A DNA stretch of 62,628 nucleotides, counting the filler. It is 3 parts of 3 records of this genome, joined end to end, with 100 filler letters (N's around TTAATTAATTAA, not from the genome) between each part and the next. Parts side by side here need not be neighbours in the genome. Positions count along the whole stretch, not along the records: positions 1 to 29,444 come from SRR22947727_489; 2 more parts are not named here. The stretch is one strand, 5' to 3'. Of this stretch, positions 6,021 to 62,628 are shown piece after piece (within the stretch, counting starts at the first letter, position 1; every line of letters starts with the position of its first letter). The notes under the pieces are model-generated. The model was not told the DNA's origin and did no database searches. It worked only from the letters and a program-made list of their open reading frames with translations. Both the position numbers and the translations under genes were made by a program.

Positions 6021-6445
6021 TTATCACTAATCAGTCTTTTCCCATAAATTTGGGAGTCCTGTATTTCATAGTTATTTGTTTTATAAAATGCCTTTACTTT
6101 AATATTAGTATTTCGCACAAATAAATTAATTTTTGGACAACCTAACTTGTAGAGTTTTTTTTCTATGATAGATAAAATAGAAGAACCAATTCCTTTTTTT
6201 TGTAGTTCTGGAAGAACTGCTAAATAATAAATATACCCTCGGTGACCATCGTATCCAGCCATGGCTGTAGCAATGATTTTTTTATTAATTTCTCCAATGA
6301 TAAACAGATTATCTTTAATAGACAATTTTCGTTTAATATCTTTCAATGGATCATTCCATTCAACAACAAGTTTACACGTTTCCCATAATTTAACAACAGC
6401 CTCTGTGTCAGTTTTTTTAAATTTTCTATATGTAGGAATACTCAT
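6017..6445 (-). CDS. GNAT family acetyltransferase (YpeA-like)
   Basis: AGYDGHRG, YYLAV, QKKGIG, GCPKINL motifs. Start MSIPT at 6445; the ORF-track extension runs into the tRNA. Confidence 0.85.
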   Translation of the reverse strand: MSIPTYRKFKKTDTEAVVKLWETCKLVVEWNDPLKDIKRKLSIKDNLFIIGEINKKIIATAMAGYDGHRGYIYYLAVLPELQKKGIGSSILSIIEKKLYKLGCPKINLFVRNTNIKVKAFYKTNNYEIQDSQIYGKRLISDN

Positions 6446-6455
6446 AATTTTTCTT

Positions 6456-6530
6456 TGGCGGTCTCGTAGGGATTCGAACCCCAAATCCATGTTCCGAAGA
6501 CACGTGTGATATCCATTTCACCACGAGACC
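6456..6530 (-). tRNA. tRNA-Arg (anticodon UCG)
   Basis: Minus strand GGTCTCG-TG-GTGA AATGGATA TCAC-A-CGTGT CTTCGGA ACATG-GATT-TGGGG TTCGAAT CCCTA-CGAGACC-G-CCA. Complete cloverleaf with encoded CCA and A20. Confidence 0.92.
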
Positions 6531-6587
6531 ATAACTGTTTTTTATGCTAAAAGTTGAAAAGATTAAAGGATAGTTTAATAAAAAAGA

Positions 6588-7859
6588 ATGAGTTCTAACT
6601 TTAGGCCAAAAAATTATCAACCACTAGAGGTTTCAACTATAAAAAATTTTATTGAAAACAGTGATAAAATTAAAAATATTATTGGTGACACAAAAGAAAT
6701 AGAAATCAAAGAAGTTGGAGATGGAAATTTAAATTTAGTTTTTTTTGTTGAGTCTAAAAAAAATTCAATTTGTATTAAGCAACCACTGCCCTATCTCAGA
6801 GTGCTTAAAGATTGGCCTCTAACTTTAAAAAGATCATATTATGAATCTGAATATATGAATATTCACTCAAATCATGTTGCAGATTTGATGCCTAAAATTT
6901 ATGATTTTGATCCCGAGTTGTGCACGATAACAATGGAGAAATTATCCCCACATATAATAATGCGACATGGATTAATTAACGCAACAAAATATGAAAAATT
7001 TGCTGAAGATATTTCAACTTTTATGTCCAAAACATTATTTTTTACCTCAGATTTATATTTAAAAGCTGATCAAAAAAAAGAATTAAATTCGAGGTTCATC
7101 ATGAATACAGAGCTTTGTAAAATTACAGAAGATTTAATTTTTACTGATCCATATATGTATAATAAAAATAATAGATGGACCACACCTCATCTTGATAAAC
7201 AAAAAAAAGAAATAGAAAATAACGATGATCTTAAAATTGCAGTAAGTAGATTAAAAATAAAATTTATGAGTGAAAGCCAATCTTTACTTCATGGCGATCT
7301 TCATACTGGCTCAATAATGGTTTCGGAAAATGATACTAAAGTAATAGATCCAGAATTTGCTTTTTATGGACCCATGGGTTTTGATATAGGAGCTTTATTA
7401 GCAAATTTATTAATGAACTTTTTTTCTCAAAATGGTCATGAAAATAATTTTGGTGAAAGAAAAGAATTTAAAAAATGGATTTTAAATTTAATTAATATGA
7501 TTTGGATAAAATTTGAAAACAAATTTTGCAATTTGTGGAATGACTATCCAGAAGGAGATGCTTATCCTACACAATTATTTAATAATAAACAAATTATTAA
7601 AAGGGAACAAAAAAATTATTTACAAAATATTTACAATGACTCGATTGGCTTTGCAGGAGCTAAAATAATTAGACGAATTTTTGGCTTTGCTCACAACATA
7701 GATTTTGATTGGATTAAAGATGATAAAATAAGAGCAATTTGTGAAAATAAATGTGCTAATCTTGGGATAGATATGCAAGTAAATCCCTCTAAATTTAGAG
7801 ATATCTCAAGTTTAATTGAGGCAGCTATTAAATTGGATAATGAAAGTATTAGCTTTTAG
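6588..7859 (+). CDS. mtnK: 5-methylthioribose / 5-deoxyribose kinase
   Basis: EVGDGNLNLVF, KQ, HGDLHTGSI, DPEFAFYGPMGFDIG, IIRRIFGFAH motifs. Confidence 0.93.
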   Translation: MSSNFRPKNYQPLEVSTIKNFIENSDKIKNIIGDTKEIEIKEVGDGNLNLVFFVESKKNSICIKQPLPYLRVLKDWPLTLKRSYYESEYMNIHSNHVADLMPKIYDFDPELCTITMEKLSPHIIMRHGLINATKYEKFAEDISTFMSKTLFFTSDLYLKADQKKELNSRFIMNTELCKITEDLIFTDPYMYNKNNRWTTPHLDKQKKEIENNDDLKIAVSRLKIKFMSESQSLLHGDLHTGSIMVSENDTKVIDPEFAFYGPMGFDIGALLANLLMNFFSQNGHENNFGERKEFKKWILNLINMIWIKFENKFCNLWNDYPEGDAYPTQLFNNKQIIKREQKNYLQNIYNDSIGFAGAKIIRRIFGFAHNIDFDWIKDDKIRAICENKCANLGIDMQVNPSKFRDISSLIEAAIKLDNESISF

Positions 7860-8803
7860 TTCTTATTAAATCTTTCTAGTTTAAAAATAAAATCTTTTAT
7901 AATTTCATCTCTATTTAACATAGAAACTATTTTGATTGAATGCCTACGGTGATCAACACTCCACGTCATATTATCTGATAATATTGGTGATGGAATTATA
8001 TTAGTTGGTGTCCACTCTTCATTTATTAACCATGCAACTGCAGCCATATCCCATAGTTCTTTTGACCACCCTTTGTGATCATCACTGTACTCTTTAAAAC
8101 GCATTGCTAAAAATTTTCCAATTTCACCGTGCGGTTCAATATACTTTTCTACTTCAGGTACAGTGGTTGTTAAGTGTGTAGTGACACCCGCGCATGGAAC
8201 CATTACTAGAGGAACTCCGCAATCAAAAAGTATTTGAGCTCCGCCTACATCTTGTTTTAAATTAAAATCATATGAGTGAGGCCAATACAGTGCATTTCCT
8301 CCTAACCAAATAACTACTACTTTTTCTTTTATAGAGGGATCTTTTACTAAAGCTGATGCAACATTACTAATAGCTCCAATCGCAATCACGTATAAAGGAT
8401 TGTCCGCAGAACCTTCGTGAGCTTTTTTAATCAAATCGTCTACAGCAGGAGCTTCAACAACTTTCTTAGCTGAGCCTACATATTCTTTAACACCTTTAAA
8501 AACGAAATTTTCATGAGAAACATTTATTCTTTCTAAAAGTCTTAATATTTCATCATAGCTTAACTCCATTCCTTTTTCAGGATTGTCGGCTCTTTCATTC
8601 ATAGAGAACGGTGCAGCATAAATACCTTCAACCTTAATTCTTTCATGTGATAGCATCATCTGCACTAAAGCAAACTGATCATCTATTTCATTGTAAGTAT
8701 CTGTATCTAAAACAGCACGCACAATCCCTTTTCTAGGTTGTAATAAATTTAATATTTTTGTATCATCTTTTGATACATGAAAACCTTTTTCAAAATAAGC
8801 CAT
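7856..8803 (-). CDS. nucleoside hydrolase (IU-NH / Rih family)
   Basis: DTDTYNEIDD Ca2+-binding motif, AIGAISNVA, WLGG, FNL, LWD. Confidence 0.88.
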   Translation of the reverse strand: MAYFEKGFHVSKDDTKILNLLQPRKGIVRAVLDTDTYNEIDDQFALVQMMLSHERIKVEGIYAAPFSMNERADNPEKGMELSYDEILRLLERINVSHENFVFKGVKEYVGSAKKVVEAPAVDDLIKKAHEGSADNPLYVIAIGAISNVASALVKDPSIKEKVVVIWLGGNALYWPHSYDFNLKQDVGGAQILFDCGVPLVMVPCAGVTTHLTTTVPEVEKYIEPHGEIGKFLAMRFKEYSDDHKGWSKELWDMAAVAWLINEEWTPTNIIPSPILSDNMTWSVDHRRHSIKIVSMLNRDEIIKDFIFKLERFNKN

Positions 8804-8985
8804 ATAAATTAGTTATATATTTTTTTTAAGTTGTAAAATAATATTATTAATAAAAATTAATTATAACATTAAAATTATAAATATCACATTAAATATAAAT
8901 TTAGTTAATATTTACTTATAATTTTATTGATTAATAAAAGTCAATATGCAAGAAGTCTCTTAATTTAATTAAATTAGGAGGAAAA

Positions 8986-10254
8986 ATGATTAAAAGAATA
9001 TTTTCTTTTTTTAGTGTCTTCTTACTATTTACAAGTATTTCTTTTTCTGCAAAATCAGCAGAGAAGATTGCGTTAGTAATTGGAACTTGGGCAGAAGGCC
9101 CGTTAACACCATATGTTGAAAAATTTACAGCAGATACAGGAATTGAAGTCGATATACAAACTTTTCCATTTAGAGATCTTCTTGCAACCTTAGAAGTAAG
9201 AGGAAATGCAAAAGCTGATGATATTGACGTAGTTTTTGTTGATGCTCCATTAGTACCTTCATACGCTGTCAGAGGTATGATTGCACCTATGGACTCATAT
9301 TTTTCAGATGCAAATTTAAATGAAATTTTTGCTCCAGCAGGTATTGCAGCAGCTTCATGGAATGGTGAAATGTATGCGCCGCCGCTGAATAACTCAGGAC
9401 AGATATTGTACTACAACAAAGATCTTCTTGCAAAAGCAGGTTGTGCTGAACCATCTGCAATTGAGTCTGAAAGAATTACTTGGGAACAGGTTGTTGATTG
9501 TGCTCAAAAAATTAATGATGAAGGAAGTGGTACTTGGGGTATGATTTTTGATCAAATCAGTAGATACTACCAACTTCAAGCTTTACCTGAATCTTTAGGT
9601 GGTGGATCTGGAGTTTGTGAAGGTGGATTATCAGTTAAAGGTTGTCTTACAAACGATGGATGGATGAAAGCTGCTCAATGGTATTATGATATTCATAACA
9701 CATGGAATGTTTCTCCTAAAGGAGCTAACCCTGACCAAACTCATGAAATGTTTGGTGCTGGCAAAATTGGAATTTTTGTTGGAGGTTCATGGAATGTTGG
9801 AAGATGGAAAGATTCTGATTTAAATTTTGGTTTAGCGTTGCATCCTTATTTTGAGGGTGGTGATGTTGTAACAGGTTGTAATAGTTGGCATATGGGAGTT
9901 TGGAATTATTCTAAACAAAAAGATGCCTCAGCTTTACTTGTGAGATATCTAACTGCAAGTCCAGATGTTGCTCTAGCTTATGTTGATGAGCATAATTCAT
10001 TACCTGCACATATGTCAGGTATATTGCATGTTGCAGAAGATCCAAAGTTTAACAATTTTCCAGATACAGCTATGAAATTAGCAACTTATGAGTCTGCAAA
10101 TCATTGTGCAACGAGAGGTAGAACACCTGGTTTCCTAGAATTTGAAGAAATTGTAAATACAAGCTTTGAAGACATCAGAAATGGTGGTGATCCTGCTTCA
10201 GTTATGCAGTCTGCAGAGACAAGAATTGAACAATCAATGAGACGTTATAAGTAA
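8986..10254 (+). CDS. carbohydrate-type (CUT1) ABC transporter substrate-binding protein
   Basis: Signal peptide, FTADTGIEV, LYYNKDLL, F..GKIGIFVGGSW; strong SD AGGAGG upstream. Confidence 0.9.
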   Translation: MIKRIFSFFSVFLLFTSISFSAKSAEKIALVIGTWAEGPLTPYVEKFTADTGIEVDIQTFPFRDLLATLEVRGNAKADDIDVVFVDAPLVPSYAVRGMIAPMDSYFSDANLNEIFAPAGIAAASWNGEMYAPPLNNSGQILYYNKDLLAKAGCAEPSAIESERITWEQVVDCAQKINDEGSGTWGMIFDQISRYYQLQALPESLGGGSGVCEGGLSVKGCLTNDGWMKAAQWYYDIHNTWNVSPKGANPDQTHEMFGAGKIGIFVGGSWNVGRWKDSDLNFGLALHPYFEGGDVVTGCNSWHMGVWNYSKQKDASALLVRYLTASPDVALAYVDEHNSLPAHMSGILHVAEDPKFNNFPDTAMKLATYESANHCATRGRTPGFLEFEEIVNTSFEDIRNGGDPASVMQSAETRIEQSMRRYK

Positions 10255-10274
10255 TCATTTTAACTTATAATTTA

Positions 10275-10304
10275 TTACTACGCAGAGTATACTCTGCGTA
10301 GTAA
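10275..10304 (+). terminator. perfect 30-bp palindrome followed by a T-run (intra-operon terminator/mRNA stabiliser)
   Basis: TTACTACGCAGAGTA|TACTCTGCGTAGTAA followed by ATTTTTTTT, between the SBP and the first permease. Confidence 0.75.
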
Positions 10305-10328
10305 ATTTTTTTTGATTTATACAAATTT

Positions 10329-11225
10329 ATGTTTAACAATTTTTTTAAAAGACAATGGATAGTTCCTTATCTATTTTTAGCTCCTGCATTATTAGCAACC
10401 ATAGCTTTTAAACTTTATCCAATCTTCATCGGTTTTTGGGAAAGCTTAATTTATACTAGCTTTGGTGGAGGTGTGGAAAAAAGATCATTTGTGTGGTTTG
10501 AGAATTATCAATATCTTTTTAGTGATCCATTATTTTGGCAGTCTTTAAAAATTACATCTATTTTAACAATATTTATCAATCCTTTTCAGATTGCTCTGTC
10601 TTTGGGTTTAGCTCTTTTGTTAATGCGCAAATCAAAATTCATAAGAGTTATAAGATCTTTGTATTTGCTTCCAATAGGTGTTGCATTGCCAATAGCGACG
10701 GTAGTTTGGGGCTTAATGCTTGATCCTTATCAAGGACTAGCAAATGGTTTTATTGGACTCTTTGGAATACCGCCCCAACCTTTTTTAGTGAGTGAACATC
10801 AAGCCTTGTGGTCTATTATAGCTATAGCTACATGGAAAGGTGTTGCTTTTTGGATGCTTTTCTTACTTGCAGGTATGGAAGAAATCCCTACACAATATTA
10901 TGAAGCTGCAAAAATTGATGGAGCAAGGCCATTTGAAAAATTTAGATTTATAACTTTGCCTTTATTAAAAAGAACAATACTTTTTGTTTTTGTGGCAGAT
11001 ACCGCTACAAACTTTGTGTTGATGGTTCCCATGATTATTTTAACAAAGGGAGGTCCAATGCAGTCAACAAATGTACTAGCTTTTGAGGCTTATCGTAGTG
11101 GTTTTTATTATCAGGATTGGGGTAGATCATTATCAATTATAAGTATTTTGACAATTATTTCTCTAGTTGTAATCGGACTTCAGTTATTGTTCTTGGGTGA
11201 TAATAAAGAGGATCGAGTTAAATAA
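10329..11225 (+). CDS. CUT1 ABC transporter permease (MalF/UgpA-like)
   Basis: PYLFLAP, ENY..LF.DP.FW, EAA loop YEAAKIDGA...FRFITLP. Confidence 0.92.
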   Translation: MFNNFFKRQWIVPYLFLAPALLATIAFKLYPIFIGFWESLIYTSFGGGVEKRSFVWFENYQYLFSDPLFWQSLKITSILTIFINPFQIALSLGLALLLMRKSKFIRVIRSLYLLPIGVALPIATVVWGLMLDPYQGLANGFIGLFGIPPQPFLVSEHQALWSIIAIATWKGVAFWMLFLLAGMEEIPTQYYEAAKIDGARPFEKFRFITLPLLKRTILFVFVADTATNFVLMVPMIILTKGGPMQSTNVLAFEAYRSGFYYQDWGRSLSIISILTIISLVVIGLQLLFLGDNKEDRVK

Positions 11226-12064
11226 TGTTTAAACATATTAATAAAAATTGGCCAATTTATGCCTGGTACTTTGTTATTGTTATAGGTTTAATTATTACAA
11301 TAGCTCCTTTTTGGTGGGCTTTATCTAGTTCATTTAAAGATAATGTTACAATTTTTTCTGAGGTTGCTCCTTTTTCTTTTTGGTCAATGGTGCCTGGCAC
11401 TTCGTTGGACCCATATTATGGTATTTTTCAAAAAGGATTTGGTAGAGCAATGGCTAATACACTCTTTGTTTCTGTTGTATCAGTTATAGGAGGTATAATT
11501 ATAAATTCTATGGCAGGTTTTGCTTTCGCACAGTTTAGATTTAAGGGAGATAATATTATGTTCGGATTTATTTTATTATCATTTGCAGTGCCAGCAGATG
11601 CTATTGCAATTCCATTATTTAAAATGATGAGACAGATTGGCTGGTTTGATACCTATTATGCTTTAATAATTCCAATGCTTGCTAATGGCATAATAATTTT
11701 CTTATTTAGACAATTTTTCATTGGTATTCCTAAAGAATTAATGGAGGCAGCAAGGGTAGATGGTCTATCGTGGTTTGGTGTTTATTGGAAAATATGTATG
11801 CCTTTATCAAAACCAGTAACGTTAGGTGCGGGTCTGTTACTCTTTGTTTTTCAATGGGAGTCTTTTTTGTGGCCGTTAATTGCAGCCCCTTCTCCAGATC
11901 TTCATTTAATTCAAGTGGTGTTAGCAAGATTCTCAACTGAATATGCCCCTATATGGAATCAACAATTTGCTGCATCTACTATTGCAGGTCTGTTACCACT
12001 TATATTTATTTATCTTTTTCAAAAACAGTTTGTAAGCGCTCTAACTGGTGTCGAACAAAAATAA
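11225..12064 (+). CDS. CUT1 ABC transporter permease (MalG/UgpE-like)
   Basis: RQFF..IPKELMEAARVDG, WESFLWP, FQKQFV. Confidence 0.92.
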   Translation: MFKHINKNWPIYAWYFVIVIGLIITIAPFWWALSSSFKDNVTIFSEVAPFSFWSMVPGTSLDPYYGIFQKGFGRAMANTLFVSVVSVIGGIIINSMAGFAFAQFRFKGDNIMFGFILLSFAVPADAIAIPLFKMMRQIGWFDTYYALIIPMLANGIIIFLFRQFFIGIPKELMEAARVDGLSWFGVYWKICMPLSKPVTLGAGLLLFVFQWESFLWPLIAAPSPDLHLIQVVLARFSTEYAPIWNQQFAASTIAGLLPLIFIYLFQKQFVSALTGVEQK

Positions 12065-13146
12065 TGCTTGTTAACGATACTAACCTTACAACAATTTGGG
12101 TAGATGAAAATAATCAGAAAATAAAAATTATTGATCAAAGACTTCTTCCTCATGAGCTAAGTATAGTAACATTAAACTCAGTTAAGGATGTTGAATTTGC
12201 TATTAGAGAAATGCAGGTTAGAGGAGCTCCTTTAATAGGTGTTACTGCTGCTTTTGGAATGTATGTTGCTGCTTTAGAAGATTCTTCAATGGAGTTTCTT
12301 AATCAAGCTGCAGATTTTTTAATAAAATCAAGACCAACAGCAGTTAATTTAAGTTGGGCAATAGAAAAAATTAAATTAGAAATTTCTAATATAGATCAAG
12401 CAAATAGAGCAGATAGTATTTTTAATTTAGCTAAAAAAATTAGAGAAGATGATATTGAGGCGTGTAGTAAGATAGGTGAATATGGCCTTGAATTAATAAA
12501 AAATATTTATAGTAAAACAAACTCAACAGTAAATATCCTAACTCATTGTAATGCAGGTTGGTTAGCTGCTGTTGATTGGGGTACAGCTTTAGCACCAATA
12601 TTTAAAGCTAAAAAAAATAATATACCTATTCATGTGTGGGTTGATGAGACTCGACCTAGAAATCAGGGTTTTAATTTAACTGCTTGGGAACTAATTAATG
12701 AGAATATTGATTGCTCTCTAATTGTTGATAATGTCGGTGGTCATTTAATGCAACATAATCAAGTTGATATGTGTATCGTTGGGACAGACAGAACAACCTT
12801 AAGTGGCGATGTTTGTAATAAAATAGGTACTTATTTGAAAGCTCTTGCAGCTTTTGATAATAATATTCCTTTTTATGTATCCGCACCAATTTCAAGTATA
12901 GATTTTAACATTCGAGATGGTATTTCTGAAATTCAAATTGAGACAAGAGATCCCAAAGAAGTAAGTAGTATTTGGGGAGTCGATGAAAATAAAAATATGA
13001 AAACAATAAGTATCGTTCCAGAAAATTCAAAATCAGTAAACTATGCTTTTGATGTTACACCATCTAAATATATCTCTAAACTTATTACTGAAAAGGGAGT
13101 AGTTGACGCAAATGAAATATCAATTAAGGGTTTAAAAGATAAATGA
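12064..13146 (+). CDS. mtnA: methylthioribose-1-phosphate / 5-deoxyribose-1-phosphate isomerase
   Basis: DQRLLP, VRGAPLIG, RPTAVNL, THCNAG, DETRP, NKIGT, AFDVTP; ATG at 12064 overlaps the permease stop (TAATG). Confidence 0.95.
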   Translation: MLVNDTNLTTIWVDENNQKIKIIDQRLLPHELSIVTLNSVKDVEFAIREMQVRGAPLIGVTAAFGMYVAALEDSSMEFLNQAADFLIKSRPTAVNLSWAIEKIKLEISNIDQANRADSIFNLAKKIREDDIEACSKIGEYGLELIKNIYSKTNSTVNILTHCNAGWLAAVDWGTALAPIFKAKKNNIPIHVWVDETRPRNQGFNLTAWELINENIDCSLIVDNVGGHLMQHNQVDMCIVGTDRTTLSGDVCNKIGTYLKALAAFDNNIPFYVSAPISSIDFNIRDGISEIQIETRDPKEVSSIWGVDENKNMKTISIVPENSKSVNYAFDVTPSKYISKLITEKGVVDANEISIKGLKDK

Positions 13147-15152
13147 AAAGTTTATGGAATAATAAAATCGCCTTACAATATGTTAGTGAGTATAAGAAGA
13201 AAAATATTAGTAAAGATTTAGCTCTAAGAATTTATACAACACATTTATTAGGAAAAAATCCAAAACTCGTTTTGCATGGAGGGGGTAATTCTTCAGTAAA
13301 ATCTATAGGTAAAAACTTATATAAAAAAAATGTAAATCTCATTTATGTTAAAGGCAGTGGTTGGGATATGTCAAATTTAAACGAGCTTGGTATGCCTGGC
13401 TTAGAACTTAACCCACTTCTAGAAACTGTAAAATTAAATAAATTAAATGATAATGACATGGTTAACTTATTGCGATCTAATTTAATAAATGCCAACTCAC
13501 CTAATCCTTCCGTTGAAACTCTTTTACACGCTTACTTACCATTTAAGTTTGTAGACCATACTCATTCAAATGCTTTTTTAAGCATTTTAAATCAACCAAA
13601 TTCTCAAGCTTTAATTAAAAAAATTTTTGGAAACAAAGTTGGCATTGTACCCTATATTATGCCTGGCTTTTCTTTAGCAAAAGAATGTTTAAAGATTTTT
13701 AAAAAAGATGAAAAAGTTCAGGGTTTGGCGTTAATTAATCATGGTATTTTTACGTTCGGAGATAGTGCAAAACAAAGCTATGAAAGAATGATCAATTTCG
13801 TTTCTGATGTAGAAAATTATATATCTAAAAATAAAGTTAAACTCAAAACACATACTAATAAATCAAAAATTAATATGTCAGATTTCATGCTGTCTGTTAG
13901 GAAAAGTTTTTCAACTTATTCAAATCATAAATGGATTTTAAAATTTCATAACAATAATGATGATCAAGTTATAGCTTCTACTCAAAACTTAAATAATCTT
14001 ATAAATAAAGGTCCTGTAACTCCAGATCATGTTATTAGAATTAAGTCTAAAATTTTATTTATTTCAAAAAATAAATTTCACAAAATTGATGAGGAAATAA
14101 AAAAATATTGCCAATCTTATAAAAAATATTATTTAAAAAATAAAACTTTTGTTCATAATTGTACAATTACAGACCCACTTCCAAGAATTATAATTTTAGA
14201 AGGAATTGGAATTCTGTCTTTAGGAAAAAAACTGAAAGATCAAAAAATTTCTTATGATATCTTTAGGTCAATGGCATCTTCTGTATTTGATGCTGAAAGA
14301 ATAGGAAAGTTTAAGTCAATAATAGAGAAAGATATTTTTAAGATGGAGTATTGGCCTTTGGAGAGAGCTAAATTAGATAATGCAAAAGTACAATCATTAG
14401 ATGGTAACAATGTTATTATAACTGGTGGTGGTGGCACAATAGGAATGGCAATTGCAAAAAAGTTTAAAAAAGAAGGGGCTAATATAATTCTTATAGATAA
14501 AAAATATGATAAGCATCTTTTAGAAAAAAATAATCTGCATGATTGTTTCTTAATCAATACTGACCTTACTAATAATCAAAAATTAAAAAAAATAGTTGAG
14601 AAAATAGTACTAAACTTTGGAGGTATAGATATATTAATATCTAATGCTGGCAGAGCATTTCAAGGTGCTATTGAAACTGTTGATTCTAAAATAATTAAAA
14701 AAAGTTACGACATTAATTTTTTATCTCACCAAAATATTTCACAATTGACTGTTCAGGTCATGAAAAAACAAAATACCGGAGGTTTAATTTTATATAATTT
14801 ATCTAAGCAGGCTATTAATCCTGGAAAAAACTTTGGTCCTTATGGACTCGCCAAATCAACTACTCTCTTTTTAATGAAACAATACGCACTTGAGTGTGGA
14901 GAATATAATATACGTGTTAACGGCATTAATGCTGATAGAATTGAAAGTGGACTTCTAACAAAAGAATTGATTAATCAACGCGCAACTTCCAGAGGATTAA
15001 GTAAAGAAAAATACTTATCTAATAATCTCCTTAATATTCAAGTATTAGCAGATGATGTTGCTGAAGCATTTTATGCACAAACATTATTGAAAAAAACAAC
15101 AGCTAATATTATTACAGTAGATGGTGGAAATATTGAGGCTAGCCTTAGATAG
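13143..15152 (+). CDS. bifunctional class II aldolase / short-chain dehydrogenase (RhaD-SDR-like fusion)
   Basis: N-terminal: LVLHGGGNSSVK, VKGSG, PSVETLLH, HTH, NHG, TPDH. C-terminal SDR: TGGGGTIG, NAG, YGLAK, IRVNGINAD, VDGG. Confidence 0.9.
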   Translation: MKSLWNNKIALQYVSEYKKKNISKDLALRIYTTHLLGKNPKLVLHGGGNSSVKSIGKNLYKKNVNLIYVKGSGWDMSNLNELGMPGLELNPLLETVKLNKLNDNDMVNLLRSNLINANSPNPSVETLLHAYLPFKFVDHTHSNAFLSILNQPNSQALIKKIFGNKVGIVPYIMPGFSLAKECLKIFKKDEKVQGLALINHGIFTFGDSAKQSYERMINFVSDVENYISKNKVKLKTHTNKSKINMSDFMLSVRKSFSTYSNHKWILKFHNNNDDQVIASTQNLNNLINKGPVTPDHVIRIKSKILFISKNKFHKIDEEIKKYCQSYKKYYLKNKTFVHNCTITDPLPRIIILEGIGILSLGKKLKDQKISYDIFRSMASSVFDAERIGKFKSIIEKDIFKMEYWPLERAKLDNAKVQSLDGNNVIITGGGGTIGMAIAKKFKKEGANIILIDKKYDKHLLEKNNLHDCFLINTDLTNNQKLKKIVEKIVLNFGGIDILISNAGRAFQGAIETVDSKIIKKSYDINFLSHQNISQLTVQVMKKQNTGGLILYNLSKQAINPGKNFGPYGLAKSTTLFLMKQYALECGEYNIRVNGINADRIESGLLTKELINQRATSRGLSKEKYLSNNLLNIQVLADDVAEAFYAQTLLKKTTANIITVDGGNIEASLR

Positions 15153-56067: not shown

Positions 56068-56167
56068 NNNNNNNNNNNNNNNNNNNNNNNNNNNNNNNNN
56101 NNNNNNNNNNNTTAATTAATTAANNNNNNNNNNNNNNNNNNNNNNNNNNNNNNNNNNNNNNNNNNNN
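56068..56167. other. artificial contig-joining spacer
   Basis: 44 N + TTAATTAATTAA + 44 N; sharp GC increase downstream. Confidence 0.97.
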
Positions 56168-56218
56168 CCAGGGCTGGACTATGCAGCAGCTGTGTAAATG
56201 CTTTGAATCGTCTGAGAT

Positions 56219-56449
56219 TTAACGGGACGATTCAGGTTTTTCAATATCGCGGCGAATCAGTGCCAGTAGGTATGAGGGGGATTTGTAACGGGTCGGTAGG
56301 CAGCGATTCAGGGTTTCGAGATGACCCCAACACACTGTGCGTTCAATTTCTTTGGCTGATTTTCCCTGTTGAAGCAAGCGCCTTAGTGCCTTGCAGTACA
56401 TGGGATAGCCCGCCTCGAGTTCGCCGATGGTGAGTTTTGCCTGAGGCAT
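56219..56449 (-). CDS. conserved picocyanobacterial small protein (DUF3136-like)
   Basis: LTIGELEAGYP.YCKALR...RTVCW..LE.L...LP..YKSP. Confidence 0.8.
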   Translation of the reverse strand: MPQAKLTIGELEAGYPMYCKALRRLLQQGKSAKEIERTVCWGHLETLNRCLPTRYKSPSYLLALIRRDIEKPESSR

Positions 56450-56594
56450 CGGAGCGTCTCATCCACCAAGACAACTTATGCGTTCGTCGTTCCCAGAAAG
56501 TGAAGCTGTTTTGCTTCTTGACGAGGGGGTGCAGGTCGTTGTTTGTCTATCTGCACCCCAACTGATTTGGAGTTTCAGTGCTCGAGGTCGAGTG

Positions 56595-56984
56595 TCAACC
56601 CATCCATGCGACGCAATCGATTTCGACCCGTGCACCTTTTGGAAGCGCTGCAACTTGAACGCAGGCTCGGGCTGGGCTAACTCCGTCACCAAAAATCTCC
56701 GCATAGATGGCGTTGACCGTTCCAAAATCGGCGAGATCAGCCAGAAAAACGGTGGTACGCACCACCTGTTCCGCAGTCGCTCCAGCTTCGGTTAGTACGG
56801 CTTTTAAATTTTTCAAGACCTGATGGGTCTCGGCCGCAACATCGCCTTCCCCCACCATGACCCCTGTGGCTGGGTCAAGAGGGATCTGTCCTGAGCAGTA
56901 CAACCATCCGCCAGCTAAGACAGCTTGGTTGTAGGGGCCAACGGGCGCTGGAGCCGCTGCGGTGGTGATGGCTTGATTCGGCAT
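56595..56984 (-). CDS. ridA: RidA/YjgF family enamine/imine deaminase
   Basis: APAPVGPYNQA, SGQIPLDP, PARACVQVAALPKG..VEID. Confidence 0.92.
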   Translation of the reverse strand: MPNQAITTAAAPAPVGPYNQAVLAGGWLYCSGQIPLDPATGVMVGEGDVAAETHQVLKNLKAVLTEAGATAEQVVRTTVFLADLADFGTVNAIYAEIFGDGVSPARACVQVAALPKGARVEIDCVAWMG

Positions 56985-57003
56985 GGCGGGACAGCAGAGC
57001 AGA

Positions 57004-58122
57004 ATGGGGTTAAATCATCGCGTTCCACTGTTGGAAAGGGTCTCAGGACCGGTTGAAATCCGAGGCCTCTGGCATCGCTACAAGGAGTCGTCGAACGACT
57101 GGACCCTCCGTGGCATCAATCTCGAGCTCCAAGCAGGGGAGCTTGTCGGTTTGTTGGGACCCTCCGGTTGTGGAAAGACGACCCTTTTGCGATTAATCGC
57201 AGGCTTTGAACGGCCTGAGCAGGGATCGGTTCATCTTCAGCACCGCATCGTTGCGGGGGGGCAGCACTGGGTTCCGCCTGAGCGCCGAGGAGTTGGCATG
57301 GTGTTTCAGGACTATGCCCTGTTCCCCCACCTCACGGCGTGGCAAAACGCTTGCTTTGGCTTGCGTCCAGGTCAAGACAACAGTCGCGCGATTTGGTTGC
57401 TTGATCTCTTGGGCCTCCAGGGGCTGGAGCAGCGCTATCCCCATCAATTATCTGGTGGGCAGCGACAACGCTTGGCGTTGGCGCGTGCTTTGGCTCCAGC
57501 CCCTCAGGTCGTTCTTCTCGATGAGCCTTTTTCCAATCTCGATGTGGAAGTGCGCCTTCTTCTTCGCAGTGAACTGGCTTCGGTGTTGCAGGTGTGTGGA
57601 GCCAGTGGACTTCTGGTGACCCATGACCCTGGTGAGGCCCTCGCGATTTGTGATCGTGTCGCTGTGATGCGGGATGGGGTGTTGCACCAGTGCGCCACTC
57701 CAAGGGATCTAGTTGATCATCCCGCCACTCCTTTCGTGGGGCGTTTTGTTCTCCAGGCGAATTTGATTCCTGTTTGGCCAGAGGCAGATAACCGTTTGCA
57801 CTGTTGCCTCGGCAGCCTTCCTGTGCCGTCGCAGTTGTCGTTGAAGTCTTGGCCCGACGATGCAAGTCTGTTGGTGGATCCAGGAGCGATCGCCTTGGAG
57901 CCTGAGCCGGAGGCTGAAGCCTGTGTGATGGGCCGTGAATTTCAAGGTCATGCATGGCAACTCCGGGTTCAAGCGGCTGAACAACACCTGCGTGTCACCC
58001 AGCCCCTGGAGCACGACTACAACCGCGGTACACGCTGTCGTCTTGGTTTTCGAAAGGGCGCCAAGGCCATGCTGTTCCCCCAGCGCATCAGCTTGAACGC
58101 CACTGATCCTTATGACTCCTGA
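57004..58122 (+). CDS. ABC transporter ATP-binding protein, Fe3+/FutC-like
   Basis: [40 protein letters not shown]; exact start uncertain. Confidence 0.85.
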
Positions 58123-58843
58123 GCTCGGCGAGTTGTTCGGCCGTTTCAGCCTGCATAAATAAGTTGGTGCGTTTTTCAGCACCAATGCTTGAGGGAAGAC
58201 TCAGATCTCCGCGAGAACGCAGTGCCTTCACTGTCTGGTGGCGAGTTGTGATTTGAACGTCGTTAGGACGTTGCTCCGTAGCCCAGCGCAAATTGGCTTC
58301 GGTGTACTCATGGGCGCAGCACACAAGGGTTTCATCCGGCAATGCCGCGAAGCGTTGGAGTGCTCGATGCATGTCCTGAGCGGAGCCTTCAAACAACCGC
58401 CCGCAGCCGCCCGCAAAAAGAGTGTCGCCACAAAACACCAGCGGACCAAAGCTGGGGTCTTGGTCGTCGTCGTTCCGAATGATGAACGCGATATGGGCGG
58501 AGGTGTGGGCTGCCACATCGATCACCTCAAGGCTTCGTCCCAGAAGGTTGATCACATCGCCATCGGCAACACCCCTGGTTTGCAACGGAATTCTGAGCCG
58601 ATCGGCAGTGGCTGCGACGACCTCCGCCTGCGGCCATTCGCGCAACAGGTCTGGGGTCCCGCCGATGTGATCAGCGTGATGGTGGGTTTGCAGGATCGCC
58701 TTCAAGCACATCCCGTGAGCGTTCAACCACTGACCCACTGGCTCCGCCACTGCTGGATCCACGACGACCGCGTTCTTGCCTCTGCTCCAGATCCAAATCA
58801 CGTTGTCTTGTAGGACTGGCAAGGCATGAAGTGTGGAGTGCAT
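58088..58843 (-). CDS. gloB: hydroxyacylglutathione hydrolase (glyoxalase II)
   Basis: [37 protein letters not shown]; start MHST at 58843. Confidence 0.93.
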
Positions 58844-58883
58844 CGTTAAAGTCCTGCCTGGTTTCCTGGTCAACGCTGGACCC

Positions 58884-59534
58884 ATGATTACTGTCGCGTT
58901 GGCTAAAGGTGCGCTTCTGAAGGACTCCGTGGCGCGTTTCGCTGCAGCGGGTCTCGACTTCTCAGCCGTGCTGGACAAAGACAACAGGCAGTTAATGGTT
59001 CCGACCCCGTGTGGTCGAGCGCGAGCACTGTTGGTTCGAAATGGAGATGTGCCCACCTATGTGTCCTATGGACAGGCTCAGCTCGGGGTTGTCGGATACG
59101 ACGTCTTGAAGGAGCACCAGTTGCCAGTGGCACAGTTGGTGGACCTTGGTTTTGGGGGATGTCGGATGTCCGTTGCCGTGAAAGCCAGTAGCGGATATCA
59201 ACGAGCCTTGGATCTGCCAGCCCACTGCCGCGTTGCCAGCAAATTCACGCACTGCGCCAGGGAATACTTCGATTCACTCGACCTTCCGGTCGAGTTGGTT
59301 CATTTGAACGGCTCCGTTGAACTCGGTCCGATTACAGGGATGTCTGAAGCGATTGTTGATCTCGTTGCAACGGGCCGCACCTTGCGGGATAACGGCCTGG
59401 TTGAAATTGAGGAATTGTTTCGCTCGTCGGCTCGATTGGTGGGACATCCTCTGTCTATGCGCCTCGATGACGGTGCGTTGACCGAAATCGTGACTGCGAT
59501 TCGCGCCGTTGAACCATCGAAGGGAGAGGCTTGA
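58884..59534 (+). CDS. hisG: ATP phosphoribosyltransferase (short form)
   Basis: [44 protein letters not shown]. Confidence 0.95.
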
Positions 59535-61312
59535 TGGGAGCCGGAGCTGATTGGAAACGGGTTCGGCGTCTTGGTCGCTATTTGGCTCGCGATCGCCGTC
59601 GTCTCTTCGTCACCCTTGCCTTGCTCGTGCCCGTTGCACTGGCTGGGTCGATCCAGCCCTTGCTGGTTGGTCAGGCGATCAGCGTTCTGCGCCGCGAGCC
59701 AAGCCTTCCATGGCTTTCGGGATTGTCGGTTCCTCAGGCGATTCAAACGATCGTGGGTCTCCTGTTGATCTCCGTGTTGTTGCGCCTAGCCCTTCAGGGA
59801 ATTCAGTCGTTCAACATTCAGGCCGTTGGTCAACGGCTGACGGCTCGGATTCGAGACGATCTTTTTCGCCACGCCCTTTCGCTATCCCTTCGTTTTCACG
59901 ACAGCATGCCGGTGGGCAAGTTGCTCACCAGGTTGACCAACGATGTTGATGCCTTAGCTGAGGTTTTTGGGAGCGGAGCTGTTGGGGTCCTCGGCGATTT
60001 GGTGAGCTTGACCGTGATCGCCACCACCATGCTGCTGATTGAGTGGCGCCTCGGTTTGTTGCTCCTTGTCACCCAAGTCCCAGTCACTTTGTTTGTTTTG
60101 TGGCTGCAGGGGCGTTACCGGAAAGCGAATTACATGGTGCGCGAAGAGCTGTCCCAGCTCAATGCTGATTTCCAGGAAAATCTTCAGGGACTTGAGGTGG
60201 TTCAGATGTATCGCCGGGAGCAGGTCAATAGCCGCCGTTTCTCCCGCACCGGAGCCGCCTATCGCAGTGCGGTGAACGGAACGATTTTCTTTGACAGCAG
60301 CATCTCCGCGTTTCTCGAATGGGTGGGCCTCGGAGCCGTTGCTTTGGTGCTGGCCCTGGGCGGCTGGATGGTGACCAACGGGTCGATGGGGTTAGGCACA
60401 CTCACCACGTTCATCATTTATGCCCAGCGGTTGTTTGATCCCTTGCGACAGTTGGCGGAACGATTCACCCAGATTCAGGGGGGATTGACGGCGGTGGAAC
60501 GGATTGGGGAGTTGATGGAAAAGCCCCTCGAGATTGTTGAAGCCCGTGACCCTCAGCCCTTAAACACCCTGGGCGCCGGTGAATTGATATTTGAAAATGT
60601 CAGTTTTTCGTATCGCCCCGACGATCCGATTCTGCGGAACTTGTCCTTTCGGATTGCTCCCGGTGAGCACGTAGCCCTCGTGGGCCCCACAGGATCGGGA
60701 AAATCCACCGTGATTCGATTGCTGTGTCGCCTGTACGAACCCCAGGAGGGGCGAATCCTGCTCGATGGTCGCGATATCCGTTCGATCTCAACGGCGGATC
60801 TCCGTCGCCAGTTGGGAGTTGTGCTTCAGGACACCTTTTTGTTCAGTGGCAACGTTGCTGACAACCTGCGTCTTGATGCTGAGGTGAGTGATGAACAGCT
60901 TCAGAGAATCTGTTCAGACCTGGGACTGGATGAGCTGCTTCGACGGCTTCCTCAGGGGCTTGCAACAGAGCTGCGTGAACGGGGAGGCAACCTCTCCTCC
61001 GGTGAACGGCAGCTGTTGGCTGTGGCCAGGGTGGCGATTCGCAATCCAACGGTGTTGGTGATGGATGAAGCCACGGCCTTCATGGATCCCTCGACCGAAG
61101 CAACGTTGCAGCGTGATCTCGATCGGTTGCTGCAAAAGCGGACTGCTGTGGTGATTGCGCATCGCCTCGCCACCGTCGAGGCCTCCGATCGCATCTTGGT
61201 GTTGAAAGGGGGAGAGCTGATTGAGCAGGGCACCCATGTGGAGCTTCGTGCACAAGGTGGTTTGTACGCCCAGTTGGCTGACCTTCAAGAACGGGGGCTC
61301 GCCAAGCTGTGA
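59534..61312 (+). CDS. ABC exporter (TMD-NBD fusion, MsbA/MdlB-like)
   Basis: TM domain followed by GPTGSGKS, LSSGERQ, MDEAT, IAHRL. Confidence 0.92.
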   Translation: MGAGADWKRVRRLGRYLARDRRRLFVTLALLVPVALAGSIQPLLVGQAISVLRREPSLPWLSGLSVPQAIQTIVGLLLISVLLRLALQGIQSFNIQAVGQRLTARIRDDLFRHALSLSLRFHDSMPVGKLLTRLTNDVDALAEVFGSGAVGVLGDLVSLTVIATTMLLIEWRLGLLLLVTQVPVTLFVLWLQGRYRKANYMVREELSQLNADFQENLQGLEVVQMYRREQVNSRRFSRTGAAYRSAVNGTIFFDSSISAFLEWVGLGAVALVLALGGWMVTNGSMGLGTLTTFIIYAQRLFDPLRQLAERFTQIQGGLTAVERIGELMEKPLEIVEARDPQPLNTLGAGELIFENVSFSYRPDDPILRNLSFRIAPGEHVALVGPTGSGKSTVIRLLCRLYEPQEGRILLDGRDIRSISTADLRRQLGVVLQDTFLFSGNVADNLRLDAEVSDEQLQRICSDLGLDELLRRLPQGLATELRERGGNLSSGERQLLAVARVAIRNPTVLVMDEATAFMDPSTEATLQRDLDRLLQKRTAVVIAHRLATVEASDRILVLKGGELIEQGTHVELRAQGGLYAQLADLQERGLAKL

Positions 61313-61815
61313 TGACGTCCTCCTTGCAAGTGCCTGCAGAGCCACTCCTGCAGCAATACGGCGAGGACGCAAGGTTGTGTACCTGCGCTAATGATCAGCT
61401 CACCCTGGTGTTTAGTCAGTCGCAACCCTTTGATCTCATCGAGCTTGAGCAATTGCTCGAAGCTGTGGGATGGAGTCGCCGCCCTGCCCGTCGTGTGCGG
61501 AAAGCGTTGTCAAACAGCCTTCTCAAGGTGGGCTTATGGCGCCATGACCCCAGGGTTCCTCGGCTTGTTGGTTTCGCACGGTGCACGGGAGATGGCGTTT
61601 TTGAGGCCACCGTTTGGGATGTGGCTGTCCACCCCCTCTATCAAGGCAACGGCTTGGGCAAACAGATGATGATTTACATCCTCGAGACCCTGCATCAGAT
61701 GGGCACGGAACGGGTGAGCCTGTTTGCTGATCCAGACGTGGTCAATTTCTATCAGCGTCAGGGGTGGGATCTTGAGCCTCAAGCTCATCGTTGTGCTTTC
61801 TGGTACTCCAATTAG
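61312..61815 (+). CDS. GNAT N-acetyltransferase (Ycf52-like)
   Basis: VGWSRRP, LVGFAR.TGD, WDVAVHP.YQG.GLG, LFAD..V..FY...GW. Confidence 0.85.
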   Translation: MTSSLQVPAEPLLQQYGEDARLCTCANDQLTLVFSQSQPFDLIELEQLLEAVGWSRRPARRVRKALSNSLLKVGLWRHDPRVPRLVGFARCTGDGVFEATVWDVAVHPLYQGNGLGKQMMIYILETLHQMGTERVSLFADPDVVNFYQRQGWDLEPQAHRCAFWYSN

Positions 61816-61822
61816 GTATAGA

Positions 61823-62509
61823 TCAACGTCGATAAATTCGAATTAATTGTTCGGCGTCCTCGCCGTTTTTCCAGCGTCGTCTGAGCCGAGCATTGCTCCA
61901 AGCCTGGTTCAAAACGCCGCGATGGTTCCAGCGTCGTGCGCTTGTGGTGAGGGCGCACCCCAGGGCACCAATTCGACTGATCTGTTGCAGCCTTTGGATG
62001 AGGTCGACATCTTCCATGAGAGCTAAGGATCGATAGCCCCCAACGCGTTCGTACAGGCTTCGGTGGATTAGGAGACCTTGATCTCCATAGGGCATCTGTC
62101 CCCAGCGGCTGCGAAGCGCCACACACCATTCCAGCAGCTTCAACATTGGCCGGCGTTGATCGACGCGGAAGTCAAAGGCCCAAGCCTGTTGACGTCCCAG
62201 CGCCATGCTGAGCACCCTTTGGACGTGATCTACCCAGTGCTGGTTGAGCCGACTATCGGCGTGCAACACCATCAACCAGCTGTGCTGAGATAACTGCAGA
62301 CCCCGTTGGAGTTGCTGTCCTCGACCCTGCACAGGGCTTTGCACAACCTGGGCGCCTCCTTGATGGGCCACCTGAATGGTTTTGTCCGTACTGCCTCCAT
62401 CCACAACAACGATTTGGAGGGCATCGGGCCACCGCTGGAGATCTGCTAAGAGGAAGGGGAGGTGCCTCGCTTCATTGAGCACGGGAACCACCACGCTTAA
62501 CCCTGCCAT
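61823..62509 (-). CDS. GT2 glycosyltransferase (TIGR04283-like)
   Basis: SVVVPVLNE, VDGGSTD, LHADS, PYGDQG, LMED, TSARRW. Confidence 0.85.
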   Translation of the reverse strand: MAGLSVVVPVLNEARHLPFLLADLQRWPDALQIVVVDGGSTDKTIQVAHQGGAQVVQSPVQGRGQQLQRGLQLSQHSWLMVLHADSRLNQHWVDHVQRVLSMALGRQQAWAFDFRVDQRRPMLKLLEWCVALRSRWGQMPYGDQGLLIHRSLYERVGGYRSLALMEDVDLIQRLQQISRIGALGCALTTSARRWNHRGVLNQAWSNARLRRRWKNGEDAEQLIRIYRR

Positions 62510-62511
62510 GC

Positions 62512-62628
62512 TTATCCCTGCCAAGGCCTGAGATCTGCCAGGTGATCGAGATCATTCCGCCGAGCGATCAGGGCAGTGGTTAGTTGGTTTTGTGCCGCTT
62601 GAGCTTTTGTTTGTTCGAGCACATTCGC
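62512..62628 (-). CDS. 3' end of DUF2064/TIGR04282-like protein (partial)
   Basis: Reads ANVLEQT...NDLDHLADLRPWQG-stop; the DLD..DL tail and adjacency to a TIGR04283-like gene fit this family. Confidence 0.65.
   Translation of the reverse strand, partial: ANVLEQTKAQAAQNQLTTALIARRNDLDHLADLRPWQG

Follow-up and report, generated by a model that had tools for sequence, protein, structure and literature searches.

The dihydroxyacetone phosphate (DHAP) shunt constitutes the main known bacterial route by which 5'-methylthioadenosine (MTA) as well as 5'-deoxyadenosine are disposed of or used for growth. As described to date, its enzymes are MtnA, either MtnK or MtnP, and a class II aldolase of small size, Ald2/DrdA, and a transporter is often present as well (PMC12632272, PMC6079011, PMC10986504); in E. 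coli the operon runs mtnK-mtnA-ald2-transporter (PMC12632272). With the native shunt, E. coli K-12 can grow on 5-deoxyribose, 5'-deoxyadenosine and MTA (PMC10986504). The enzyme that reduces methylthioacetaldehyde was called unknown in a 2026 review (PMC13474568). The other closely related system is RhaEW, which converts rhamnulose-1-phosphate to DHAP and lactate with nicotinamide adenine dinucleotide (NAD+), was reported to be inactive with NADH, and whose orthologues were reported always to lie inside rha loci (PMC3870299). Here, we analyzed a stretch of 62,628 nucleotides (the window), composed of three joined parts of which the first, positions 1 to 29,444, comes from SRR22947727_489, and in it a gene at 13143-15152 on the plus strand that encodes a fusion of a class II aldolase and a short-chain dehydrogenase/reductase (SDR). 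The fusion is the last gene of a cluster ordered mtnK, nucleoside hydrolase, binding protein, two permeases, mtnA, fusion. This is a shunt-like salvage and uptake operon that ends in a three-domain enzyme of family NF006192 instead of Ald2, and we consider it likely that the fusion serves as the terminal enzyme in a variant of the DHAP shunt that is coupled to import, where it probably disposes of the aldehyde as well.

Our results showed that the reading frame of the fusion gene is open over its whole length, encoding 669 residues, and that the reverse strand there is full of stops. The motifs PSVE (residue 122), HTH (139), NHG (199), TGGGGTIG (427), NAG (501) and YGLAK (567) were all located in the protein, and its ATG overlaps the TGA of mtnA (ATGA at 13143-13146). 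No match to a sugar isomerase of the rhamnose rhaA/rhaI type or to the rhaB or FGGY kinase families was found among a selection of 20 open reading frames (ORFs) scanned from positions 549-22836. These observations bear out what the preliminary description of this DNA had claimed, namely intact aldolase and SDR motifs in one 669-residue chain, a place next to mtnA, and no rhamnose isomerase or kinase nearby.

Pfam assigned residues 36-219 of the fusion to Aldolase_II (59 bits; cut-off 22.2) and residues 423-605 to adh_short (113 bits; cut-off 26.6). The aldolase part, which passes the cut-off of the class II aldolase/adducin superfamily (PF00596), carries the histidine triad and the catalytic glutamate (E125, H139, H141 and H200), and the dehydrogenase part carries the marks of a classical SDR, i.e., TGGGGTIG at 427, NAG at 501, S554, Y567, K571, and an acidic residue, D452, at the end of strand beta-2. 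The three-domain architecture, an Aldolase_II and an SDR in a single chain, and the intact catalytic residues are identical to those of RhaEW, and some relatives with 90% identity carry the automatic JGI name 'rhamnose utilization protein RhaD'. On these grounds the fusion could be an ordinary RhaEW, a rhamnulose-1-phosphate aldolase/lactaldehyde dehydrogenase for rhamnose use, an explanation that we regard as extremely improbable in view of its family membership. The fusion missed the cut-offs of both rhamnulose models (TIGR02632, 388.7 bits against 567.75; NF006189, 368.6 bits against 634), for which a true RhaEW (L120) scored 1075 and 1206 bits, respectively, and it is about 27-29% identical to the two proteins that pass TIGR02632. 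It scored 782.6 bits against a cut-off of 639 with NCBIfam NF006192 (bifunctional aldolase/short-chain dehydrogenase, PRK08324.1-6), its residues 1-669 aligning with positions 1-685 of the 685 of this model. We checked ten proteins from across the tree described below with these models. All eight sampled members of the clade of the fusion, from a SAR11-type single amplified genome (SAG), Mesorhizobium ciceri, three other alphaproteobacterial metagenome-assembled genomes, Nitrospina, Reyranella and a marine metagenome contig, passed NF006192 and none of the eight passed the rhamnulose models; a third-clade member (L147) passed NF006196 instead, and L120, the true RhaEW, passed both NF006189 and TIGR02632. 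NF006192 is an objective name for the group. The neighbours of the fusion are mtnK and mtnA, with no rhaA, rhaB or FGGY gene among the scanned ORFs, and not the rha locus within which RhaEW orthologues have been placed. The word 'recruited' in the preliminary description was an overstatement: the fusion belongs to a separate family of long standing, for which linkage to mtn genes is widespread, and it was not borrowed recently from rhamnose catabolism.

To follow this linkage across relatives, a profile of 40 representatives was used to fetch 80 genome loci (38-47% identity; mostly Alphaproteobacteria and Nitrospinaceae), around which mtn genes were sought by tblastn with the proteins of the window and three proteins from the loci. 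MtnA was found at 43 of the 80 loci, MtnP at 28 and MtnK at 13, and at least one of them at 47. A FastTree phylogeny of 235 rows was built from 136 locus proteins, 98 representatives of 630-745 residues and the window protein; representatives outside this size range and L125, L126, L154 and L159, whose ORFs were unclustered, were left out. The fusion fell in a clade of 113 leaves (support 100), in which 48 of 82 loci are mtn-linked, compared with 0 of 54 outside it, counts that carry no statistical claim since kin are not independent. A tighter clade of 93 leaves (support 94) holds 48 mtn-linked loci among 77, compared with 0 of 59 outside, but this clade was defined by the very feature counted, and the 113-leaf split is therefore the fairer count. 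The two TIGR02632-passing proteins sit in another, well-supported clade. Coloured by neighbourhood, the tree groups the fusion with mtn-linked loci and not with rha-operon enzymes, a grouping that the preliminary description had named as counting against its reading.

Typing of the neighbourhoods by ORF clustering and Pfam gave six recurring contexts. The first is petABC-mtnP-mtnA-fusion. In the second, from Mesorhizobium, a SorC-type regulator is followed by the fusion, a sugar ATP-binding cassette (ABC) transporter, mtnK and mtnA. In the third, found in SAGs labelled Pelagibacteraceae (L029, L041, L043, L076 and L085, at about 8850-14900 in each), a fused S-adenosylmethionine (SAM) decarboxylase/spermidine synthase gene precedes the fusion, mtnA, mtnP and a gene resembling adenine phosphoribosyltransferase. 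This third context is a self-contained module in which spermidine is made and the MTA then disposed of, the phosphoribosyltransferase being a probable means of adenine recycling. The remaining three contexts are taken up below with the other points against our assignment. In Mesorhizobium, an AMP-binding ligase gene (cluster c51) adjoins the SorC regulator gene, a possible hint of activation of an acid product, and the neighbour clusters c60, c61 and c80 proved to be TetR and RND efflux genes and were set aside as unrelated.

Among marine metagenome loci with at least 1.1 kb of upstream sequence, mtnA ends within 200 bp of the fusion on the same strand in 24 of 27. Import-type clusters occur in the metagenome loci at 81-99% identity, and also in L204 and L206 at 60-61%; loci at 54-59% identity have the order mtnP-mtnA-fusion. 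In L204 (3-5384) and L206 (238-6345) the conservation is mosaic, with binding protein and permeases 84-92% identical, MtnA 70-71% and the fusion 60-61%; judged from these sequences, the import module and the mtnA-fusion module may have been swapped separately among lineages. We also searched a class-level sample of 400 evenly taken genomes with TIGR02632 at E <= 1e-60. A fusion was found in 62, and the RhaEW cut-off was exceeded in only two. Of these 62, 60 loci were fetched (the partial matches G562 and G524 were left out), and mtn genes lay nearby at one (L156). Most belong to the third clade, are 30-37% identical to the fusion of the window and have neither mtn nor rha genes nearby. The only recurrent context of this third clade is FGGY kinase-GDPD phosphodiesterase-DAO flavin adenine dinucleotide oxidoreductase-fusion (L127, L147, L150, L151, L173 and others of L120-L178).

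We next consider the anatomy of the protein, for which an AlphaFold model of the full fusion gave a predicted local distance difference test score (pLDDT) of 94.1 and a predicted template modelling score of 0.91. The closest solved structure to domain 1 is PDB 3m4r (E 9.5e-53, 39-41% identity), with which it was aligned by VIA at Z 32.6 and a root-mean-square deviation (rmsd) of 1.4 over 212 residues. With the domain 1 profile, FucA was found at E 3e-4 and RhaD at 0.04, and the DrdA (6btd, 6btg) and MtnB structures were not listed at E <= 10; with phmmer, FucA was found at E 0.26 and DrdA was not listed. Domain 1 is thus remotely related to the aldolases of known pathways, sharing the fold superfamily only.

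No Pfam model covers domain 2, and it was modelled alone (pLDDT 91.1) because the full-length searches with Foldseek and VIA listed only SDR chains and 3m4r. The top 15 VIA matches of this model all belong to the class II aldolase superfamily, the best being FucA 2opi (Z 10.9, with 142 residues aligned at an rmsd of 3.6) and the weakest 3m4r (Z 5.4); the next match is unrelated, at Z 4.7, and Foldseek agreed with the aldolase fold. APIP/MtnB (4m6r, Z 7.0) is among these fold matches. Alignment of domain 1 with domain 2 by hhalign gave a probability of 64% and an E value of 6.4e-5 over 92 columns, in which the histidine ligands are not kept; the invariant motifs of domain 2 are GPxTPDH and EYW. 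On the strength of these models, we read domain 2 as a putative degenerate internal duplicate of the aldolase fold, present throughout the family including RhaEW. Since the active sites of class II aldolases are built between adjacent subunits, domain 2 most likely stands in for the neighbouring subunit and would supply the second half of the domain 1 active site.

What domain 1 does was approached through the gene content of five relatives' genomes in which a fusion is linked to mtn genes. Two of them, G611 (1.1 Mb; completeness 99%) and G665 (a 3.4-Mb chromosome), encode the fusion as their sole protein with an Aldolase_II domain; therefore, they have no MtnB and no aldolase of the FucA/Ald2 type, which leaves the fusion as their one apparent candidate for the reaction that follows MtnA. 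This bears on the possibility that domain 1 acts as a dehydratase like MtnB within complete methionine salvage, with the SDR acting downstream, which the preliminary description had named as an outcome that would speak against an aldolase. MtnB shares the fold superfamily and also follows MtnA, and APIP/MtnB is among the fold matches of domain 2. However, MtnD/ARD (PF03079) and MtnC/enolase-phosphatase (TIGR01691) were over the cut-off in none of the five genomes, and a dehydratase role is disfavoured for this reason. Furthermore, the MtnB structures are missing from the domain 1 matches up to E 10, and the characterised member of the family cleaves a carbon-carbon bond (PMC3870299). We therefore hold a dehydratase to be very improbable.

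Domain 3 matched many SDRs by VIA at Z of about 30-33, and its marks are TGGGGTIG, D452, N525, S554-K555, Y567 and K571. Conservation reaches >=90%, within the clade of the fusion as well as beyond it, for S123, E125, H129, H139, H141, H200, D452, N525, K555, Y567, K571, R591 and R613, and Asp452, which sits where strand beta-2 ends, does not vary within the family. An acidic residue at this position of classical SDRs indicates a preference for NAD over NADP. Positions at which one residue is present in >=85% of the sequences inside the clade and <=15% of those outside were taken as clade-specific. There are 17, of which one (358) lies in domain 2 and 16 lie in the SDR domain (526, 556, 559, 568, 570, 575, 580, 581, 599-601, 605, 625, 627, 643 and 664), surrounding the catalytic Ser-Lys and Tyr, e.g. 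Q556, N559 and G568. Judged from the sequences, the mtn-linked enzymes thus appear to be set apart mainly by the dehydrogenase pocket, differences that would fit an altered aldehyde or an altered C5 end of the substrate.

From what is observed directly, namely which genes and motifs are present, the family and fold of the protein and the linkage kept among relatives, we infer the imported compound, substrates, order of steps and redox direction as follows. The cluster probably imports waste nucleosides or sugars of SAM chemistry and then degrades them. The binding protein and the two permeases would take up a 5'-deoxy-nucleoside or a free 5-deoxy-pentose, a presumed cytoplasmic nucleoside hydrolase would take off the base, MtnK would phosphorylate C1, and MtnA would yield 5-methylthio- or 5-deoxy-ribulose-1-phosphate. 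Domain 1, as a zinc-type class II aldolase, would cleave this product to DHAP and 2-(methylthio)acetaldehyde or acetaldehyde, and the SDR domain would use NAD+ to oxidise this aldehyde, giving 2-(methylthio)acetate or acetate. As in the DHAP shunt, the genes of MtnK and MtnA adjoin or overlap within the cluster of the predicted cleaving enzyme. Cleavage of a 5-substituted ribulose-1-phosphate by the fusion, as first suggested in the preliminary description, gains computational support from the family, the mtn linkage and the pathway hole.

Both an acid (acetate or methylthioacetate) and a volatile alcohol (ethanol or methylthioethanol) had been put forward as the product, and of the two the acid came out as the stronger option and the alcohol as the weaker. 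If the pathway assignment is right, oxidation is moderately favoured by comparison with RhaEW, because RhaEW works with NAD+ only (PMC3870299) and Asp452 is invariant. The reductive alternative, in which the same aldol cleavage is followed by reduction of the aldehyde with NAD(P)H by the SDR and a volatile organosulfur alcohol, 2-(methylthio)ethanol, or else ethanol is released, appears improbable to us, although several observations would suit it. Among SDRs, alcohol/carbonyl oxidoreductases far outnumber aldehyde dehydrogenases. In the R. rubrum type of DHAP shunt the aldehyde ends as 2-methylthioethanol, by an enzyme stated to be unknown in the review (PMC13474568), and aerobic E. coli converts acetaldehyde to ethanol (PMC10986504). 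Against this, the sole characterised relative used NAD+ and was inactive with NADH, the NAD-preferring aspartate is kept family-wide, and for a marine cell that is aerobic and limited in energy, oxidation would yield NADH together with an acid it can use.

The order of the two reactions could also be reversed. The SDR would then act first on the ketose-1-phosphate, oxidising its C4 hydroxyl and so forming a 2,4-diketone, which the zinc domain would split by a hydrolytic retro-Claisen reaction to DHAP and the acid, with no free aldehyde. With 5-deoxyribulose-1-phosphate, oxidation at C4 would give 3-hydroxy-2,4-pentanedione phosphate, the substrate of LsrF in autoinducer-2 breakdown; there is no LsrF in the window. 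RhaEW without NAD+ formed neither DHAP nor lactate (PMC3870299), as this order predicts, and the end products equal those of an aldolase-first order; yet this need of RhaEW for NAD+ might just as well be allosteric, or stem from an equilibrium that is unfavourable when the product is not removed. K555, R591 and R613 of the SDR domain, conserved at >=90% in all clades, would suit a phosphorylated substrate. In the literature consulted, no oxidation and retro-Claisen cleavage of this kind was found described for this fold. We judge oxidation ahead of cleavage unlikely in this enzyme, and it is equally doubtful that such a route is common to the whole aldolase-SDR family including RhaEW, with the degenerate copy completing the zinc site. 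Were it true, by-products of SAM would be imported and consumed by abundant marine bacteria without an aldehyde being formed.

Returning to the assignment of the fusion to an import-coupled DHAP shunt that cleaves first and oxidises second, several points weigh against it, besides the dependence among the tree leaves and the definition of the tighter clade given above. No mtn gene was found in the flanks of 33 of the 80 genome loci, some of which are short, and none flanks the fusion in the three other recurring contexts, i.e., phosphoribosyltransferase-fusion-TauD in Reyranella (iv), purF-purL-purQ-fusion in Nitrospinaceae (v) and RNase E-fusion in Pseudolabrys (vi). Domain 1 holds none of the 17 clade-specific positions and so bears no mark of an altered ketose substrate. 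The pathway hole was read from the genomes of five relatives. No ABC ATPase gene was found in the cluster or among the ORFs scanned in the left part of the window, and the ATPase of the importer would have to be encoded at another place in the genome. We know of no nucleoside hydrolase of the IU type that acts on 5'-deoxy-nucleosides, and aldehyde dehydrogenation is unusual chemistry for an SDR. Finally, biochemistry within the fusion family is that of RhaEW, which lies outside the NF006192 group, and its failure to form DHAP without NAD+ is awkward for a simple aldolase-first order (PMC3870299).

The features of the cluster are listed in Table 1.

Table 1. Features of the mtn-fusion cluster, with positions in the window.
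Feature	Position	Strand	Basis
tRNA-Arg (anticodon TCG)	6456-6530	-	ARAGORN; Rfam tRNA 57.8 bits
mtnK	6588-7859	+	TIGR01767 MTRK 485.5 bits (cut-off 275); Pfam APH
Nucleoside hydrolase-like, 315 residues	7856-8803	-	Pfam IU_nuc_hydro 73.2 bits (cut-off 34.2)
ABC solute-binding protein, sugar-type, 422 residues, periplasmic	8986-10254	+	Pfam SBP_bac_8, SBP_bac_1; N-terminal signal peptide
Terminator-like hairpin, 13 pairs (6 G-C) then T8	10275-10313	+	Directly after the binding-protein gene
ABC permease 1, 298 residues, UgpA/MalF-like	10329-11225	+	BPD_transp_1; NF007852 117.5 bits, below cut-off
ABC permease 2, 279 residues, UgpE/MalG-like	11225-12064	+	BPD_transp_1; start overlaps permease 1 stop
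mtnA, 5-methylthioribose-1-phosphate isomerase	12064-13146	+	TIGR00512 402.8 bits (cut-off 279)
Fusion domain 1, residues 1-228, class II aldolase fold, metal site intact	13143-13826	+	Pfam Aldolase_II; PDB 3m4r match
Fusion domain 2, residues 229-416, degenerate class II aldolase-like fold (predicted)	13827-14390	+	Structure model of the domain alone; hhalign
Fusion domain 3, residues 417-669 and stop, classical SDR	14391-15152	+	Pfam adh_short; VIA

The TIGR00512 match of mtnA begins at residue 53 of the longest ORF (start 11953), and an in-frame ATG is found at 12064; this ATG, which overlaps the stop of permease 2, is likely the start of mtnA. Stop/start overlaps are then unbroken from permease 1 to the fusion (TAATG twice, then the ATGA at 13143). 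The nucleoside hydrolase gene converges with mtnK and diverges from the genes of the transporter; its product has no signal peptide, carries the motif DTDTYNEIDD near the N-terminus, and is conserved at 79-95% in L197, L198, L200 and L201. The hairpin probably acts as an attenuator, controlling how much binding protein is made relative to the permeases. In three RNA-library runs the contig depth drops after about 10264-10440, as an attenuator favouring the binding protein would give. At the closest genome locus (L011), a gene for a MalK-like ATPase lies directly upstream of the fusion gene.

The cluster sits among unremarkable chromosomal genes: trmD, rplS, leuCDB, asd and a GNAT gene lie upstream, and downstream come DUF924, UDG, an MFS gene, zapE and sdh. 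On its left the cluster is bounded by the tRNA-Arg(TCG) gene, 57 bp upstream of mtnK, a possible insertion point of an island; the E. coli DHAP shunt sits on a tRNA (leuX) island (PMC12632272). No SAM or other riboswitch was found, Rfam giving only two tRNAs (whole window at the gathering threshold; 6300-9200 at E <= 1), and promoter-like hexamers were not enriched (50 found, compared with a shuffle mean of 51.5).

The full order GNAT-mtnK-hydrolase-binding protein-permeases-mtnA-fusion-DUF924-UDG-MFS was found at 81-99% protein identity on three independent marine metagenome contigs (L197, L198 and L201), and parts of it on L195, L196, L199, L200, L203, L221, L224 and L237. Because independent contigs repeat the order including both flanks, the arrangement is not an assembly artefact. 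Furthermore, a large protein database listed 53 proteins 98-100% identical to the fusion, from marine metagenome sources (ENA, JGI, Tara and NCBI), of which four NCBI records are named 'Alphaproteobacteria bacterium'. Four RNA libraries of marine origin, each from a different study, gave contigs that covered pieces of every gene of the cluster at >=95% identity, including 13075-13671, 14141-14434, 14403-15030 and 14868-15100 of the fusion region; parts of the cluster left uncovered in an RNA run carry no meaning. The binding-protein gene had a word depth of 67-364 in three runs, compared with mostly 2-19 elsewhere. These contigs are consistent with transcription of the cluster, a reading weakened by possible carry-over of DNA, by contig depth being a poor measure, and by the depth of 2-19 of most pieces. 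In runs X3, X5 and X7, contigs share loose ends immediately before 13125 and also before 15755, which suggests that in other strains of these samples the sequence on both sides of the fusion gene is diverged or different.

The window itself is composite. Positions 30184-56067 match contig C5 of genome G001 at 97-99% DNA identity, the cluster-bearing positions 1-30183 match G001 at 64-71% and on other contigs, and positions 56068-62628 have 55.8% G+C, compared with about 31% elsewhere, and no match in G001. The window is either a chimeric assembly or the product of very recent exchange. The fusion was found neither in G001 nor in any of 139 genomes of its family (E <= 1e-40), and in one of 201 genomes of its order a match below the cut-off was obtained; because G001 is kin only to 30184-56067, these counts are no measure of the rarity of the fusion.

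If our reading of the cluster is correct, the NF006192 fusion would fill the aldehyde gap of the shunt, mostly in Alphaproteobacteria (SAR11-type, Rhodospirillales and Mesorhizobium) and in Nitrospinaceae, a common mislabel as 'rhamnose utilisation' would be put right, and a single protein would give a handle on the fate of the methylthio group at sea, as an acid or as a volatile alcohol. The import-type cluster, the 53 near-identical marine proteins and the RNA-library pieces of every gene suggest that very small marine cells scavenge SAM by-products from seawater. In the searchable literature, to which North et al. 2017, North et al. 2020 and supplements do not belong, no paper was found that ties an aldolase-SDR fusion to MTA or the DHAP shunt.

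Three known systems invite comparison. PDB 3m4r, an uncharacterised archaeal protein of Thermoplasma acidophilum, corresponds to the N-terminal class II aldolase domain, domain 1 alone having been solved. RhaEW (YuxG of B. subtilis and Caur_2283 of C. aurantiacus) resembles the fusion in its three parts, its length of about 670-700 residues and its conserved catalytic residues, and differs from it in belonging to another NCBIfam equivalog and another clade of the tree, and in its rha instead of mtn context. In R. rubrum, Ald2 is small and stands alone. The DHAP shunt of E. coli ATCC 25922, R. rubrum and B. thuringiensis shares with the cluster MtnK, MtnA, the logic of a transporter and the predicted product DHAP. 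The cluster differs in having an ABC importer where the shunt has a single permease, a nucleoside hydrolase in place of MtnN/MtnP, and the three-domain fusion in place of the FucA-like Ald2/DrdA of about 210 residues (EC 4.1.2.62), with a dehydrogenase fused on, whereas the aldehyde-handling enzyme of the shunt is the one called unknown in the review (PMC13474568).

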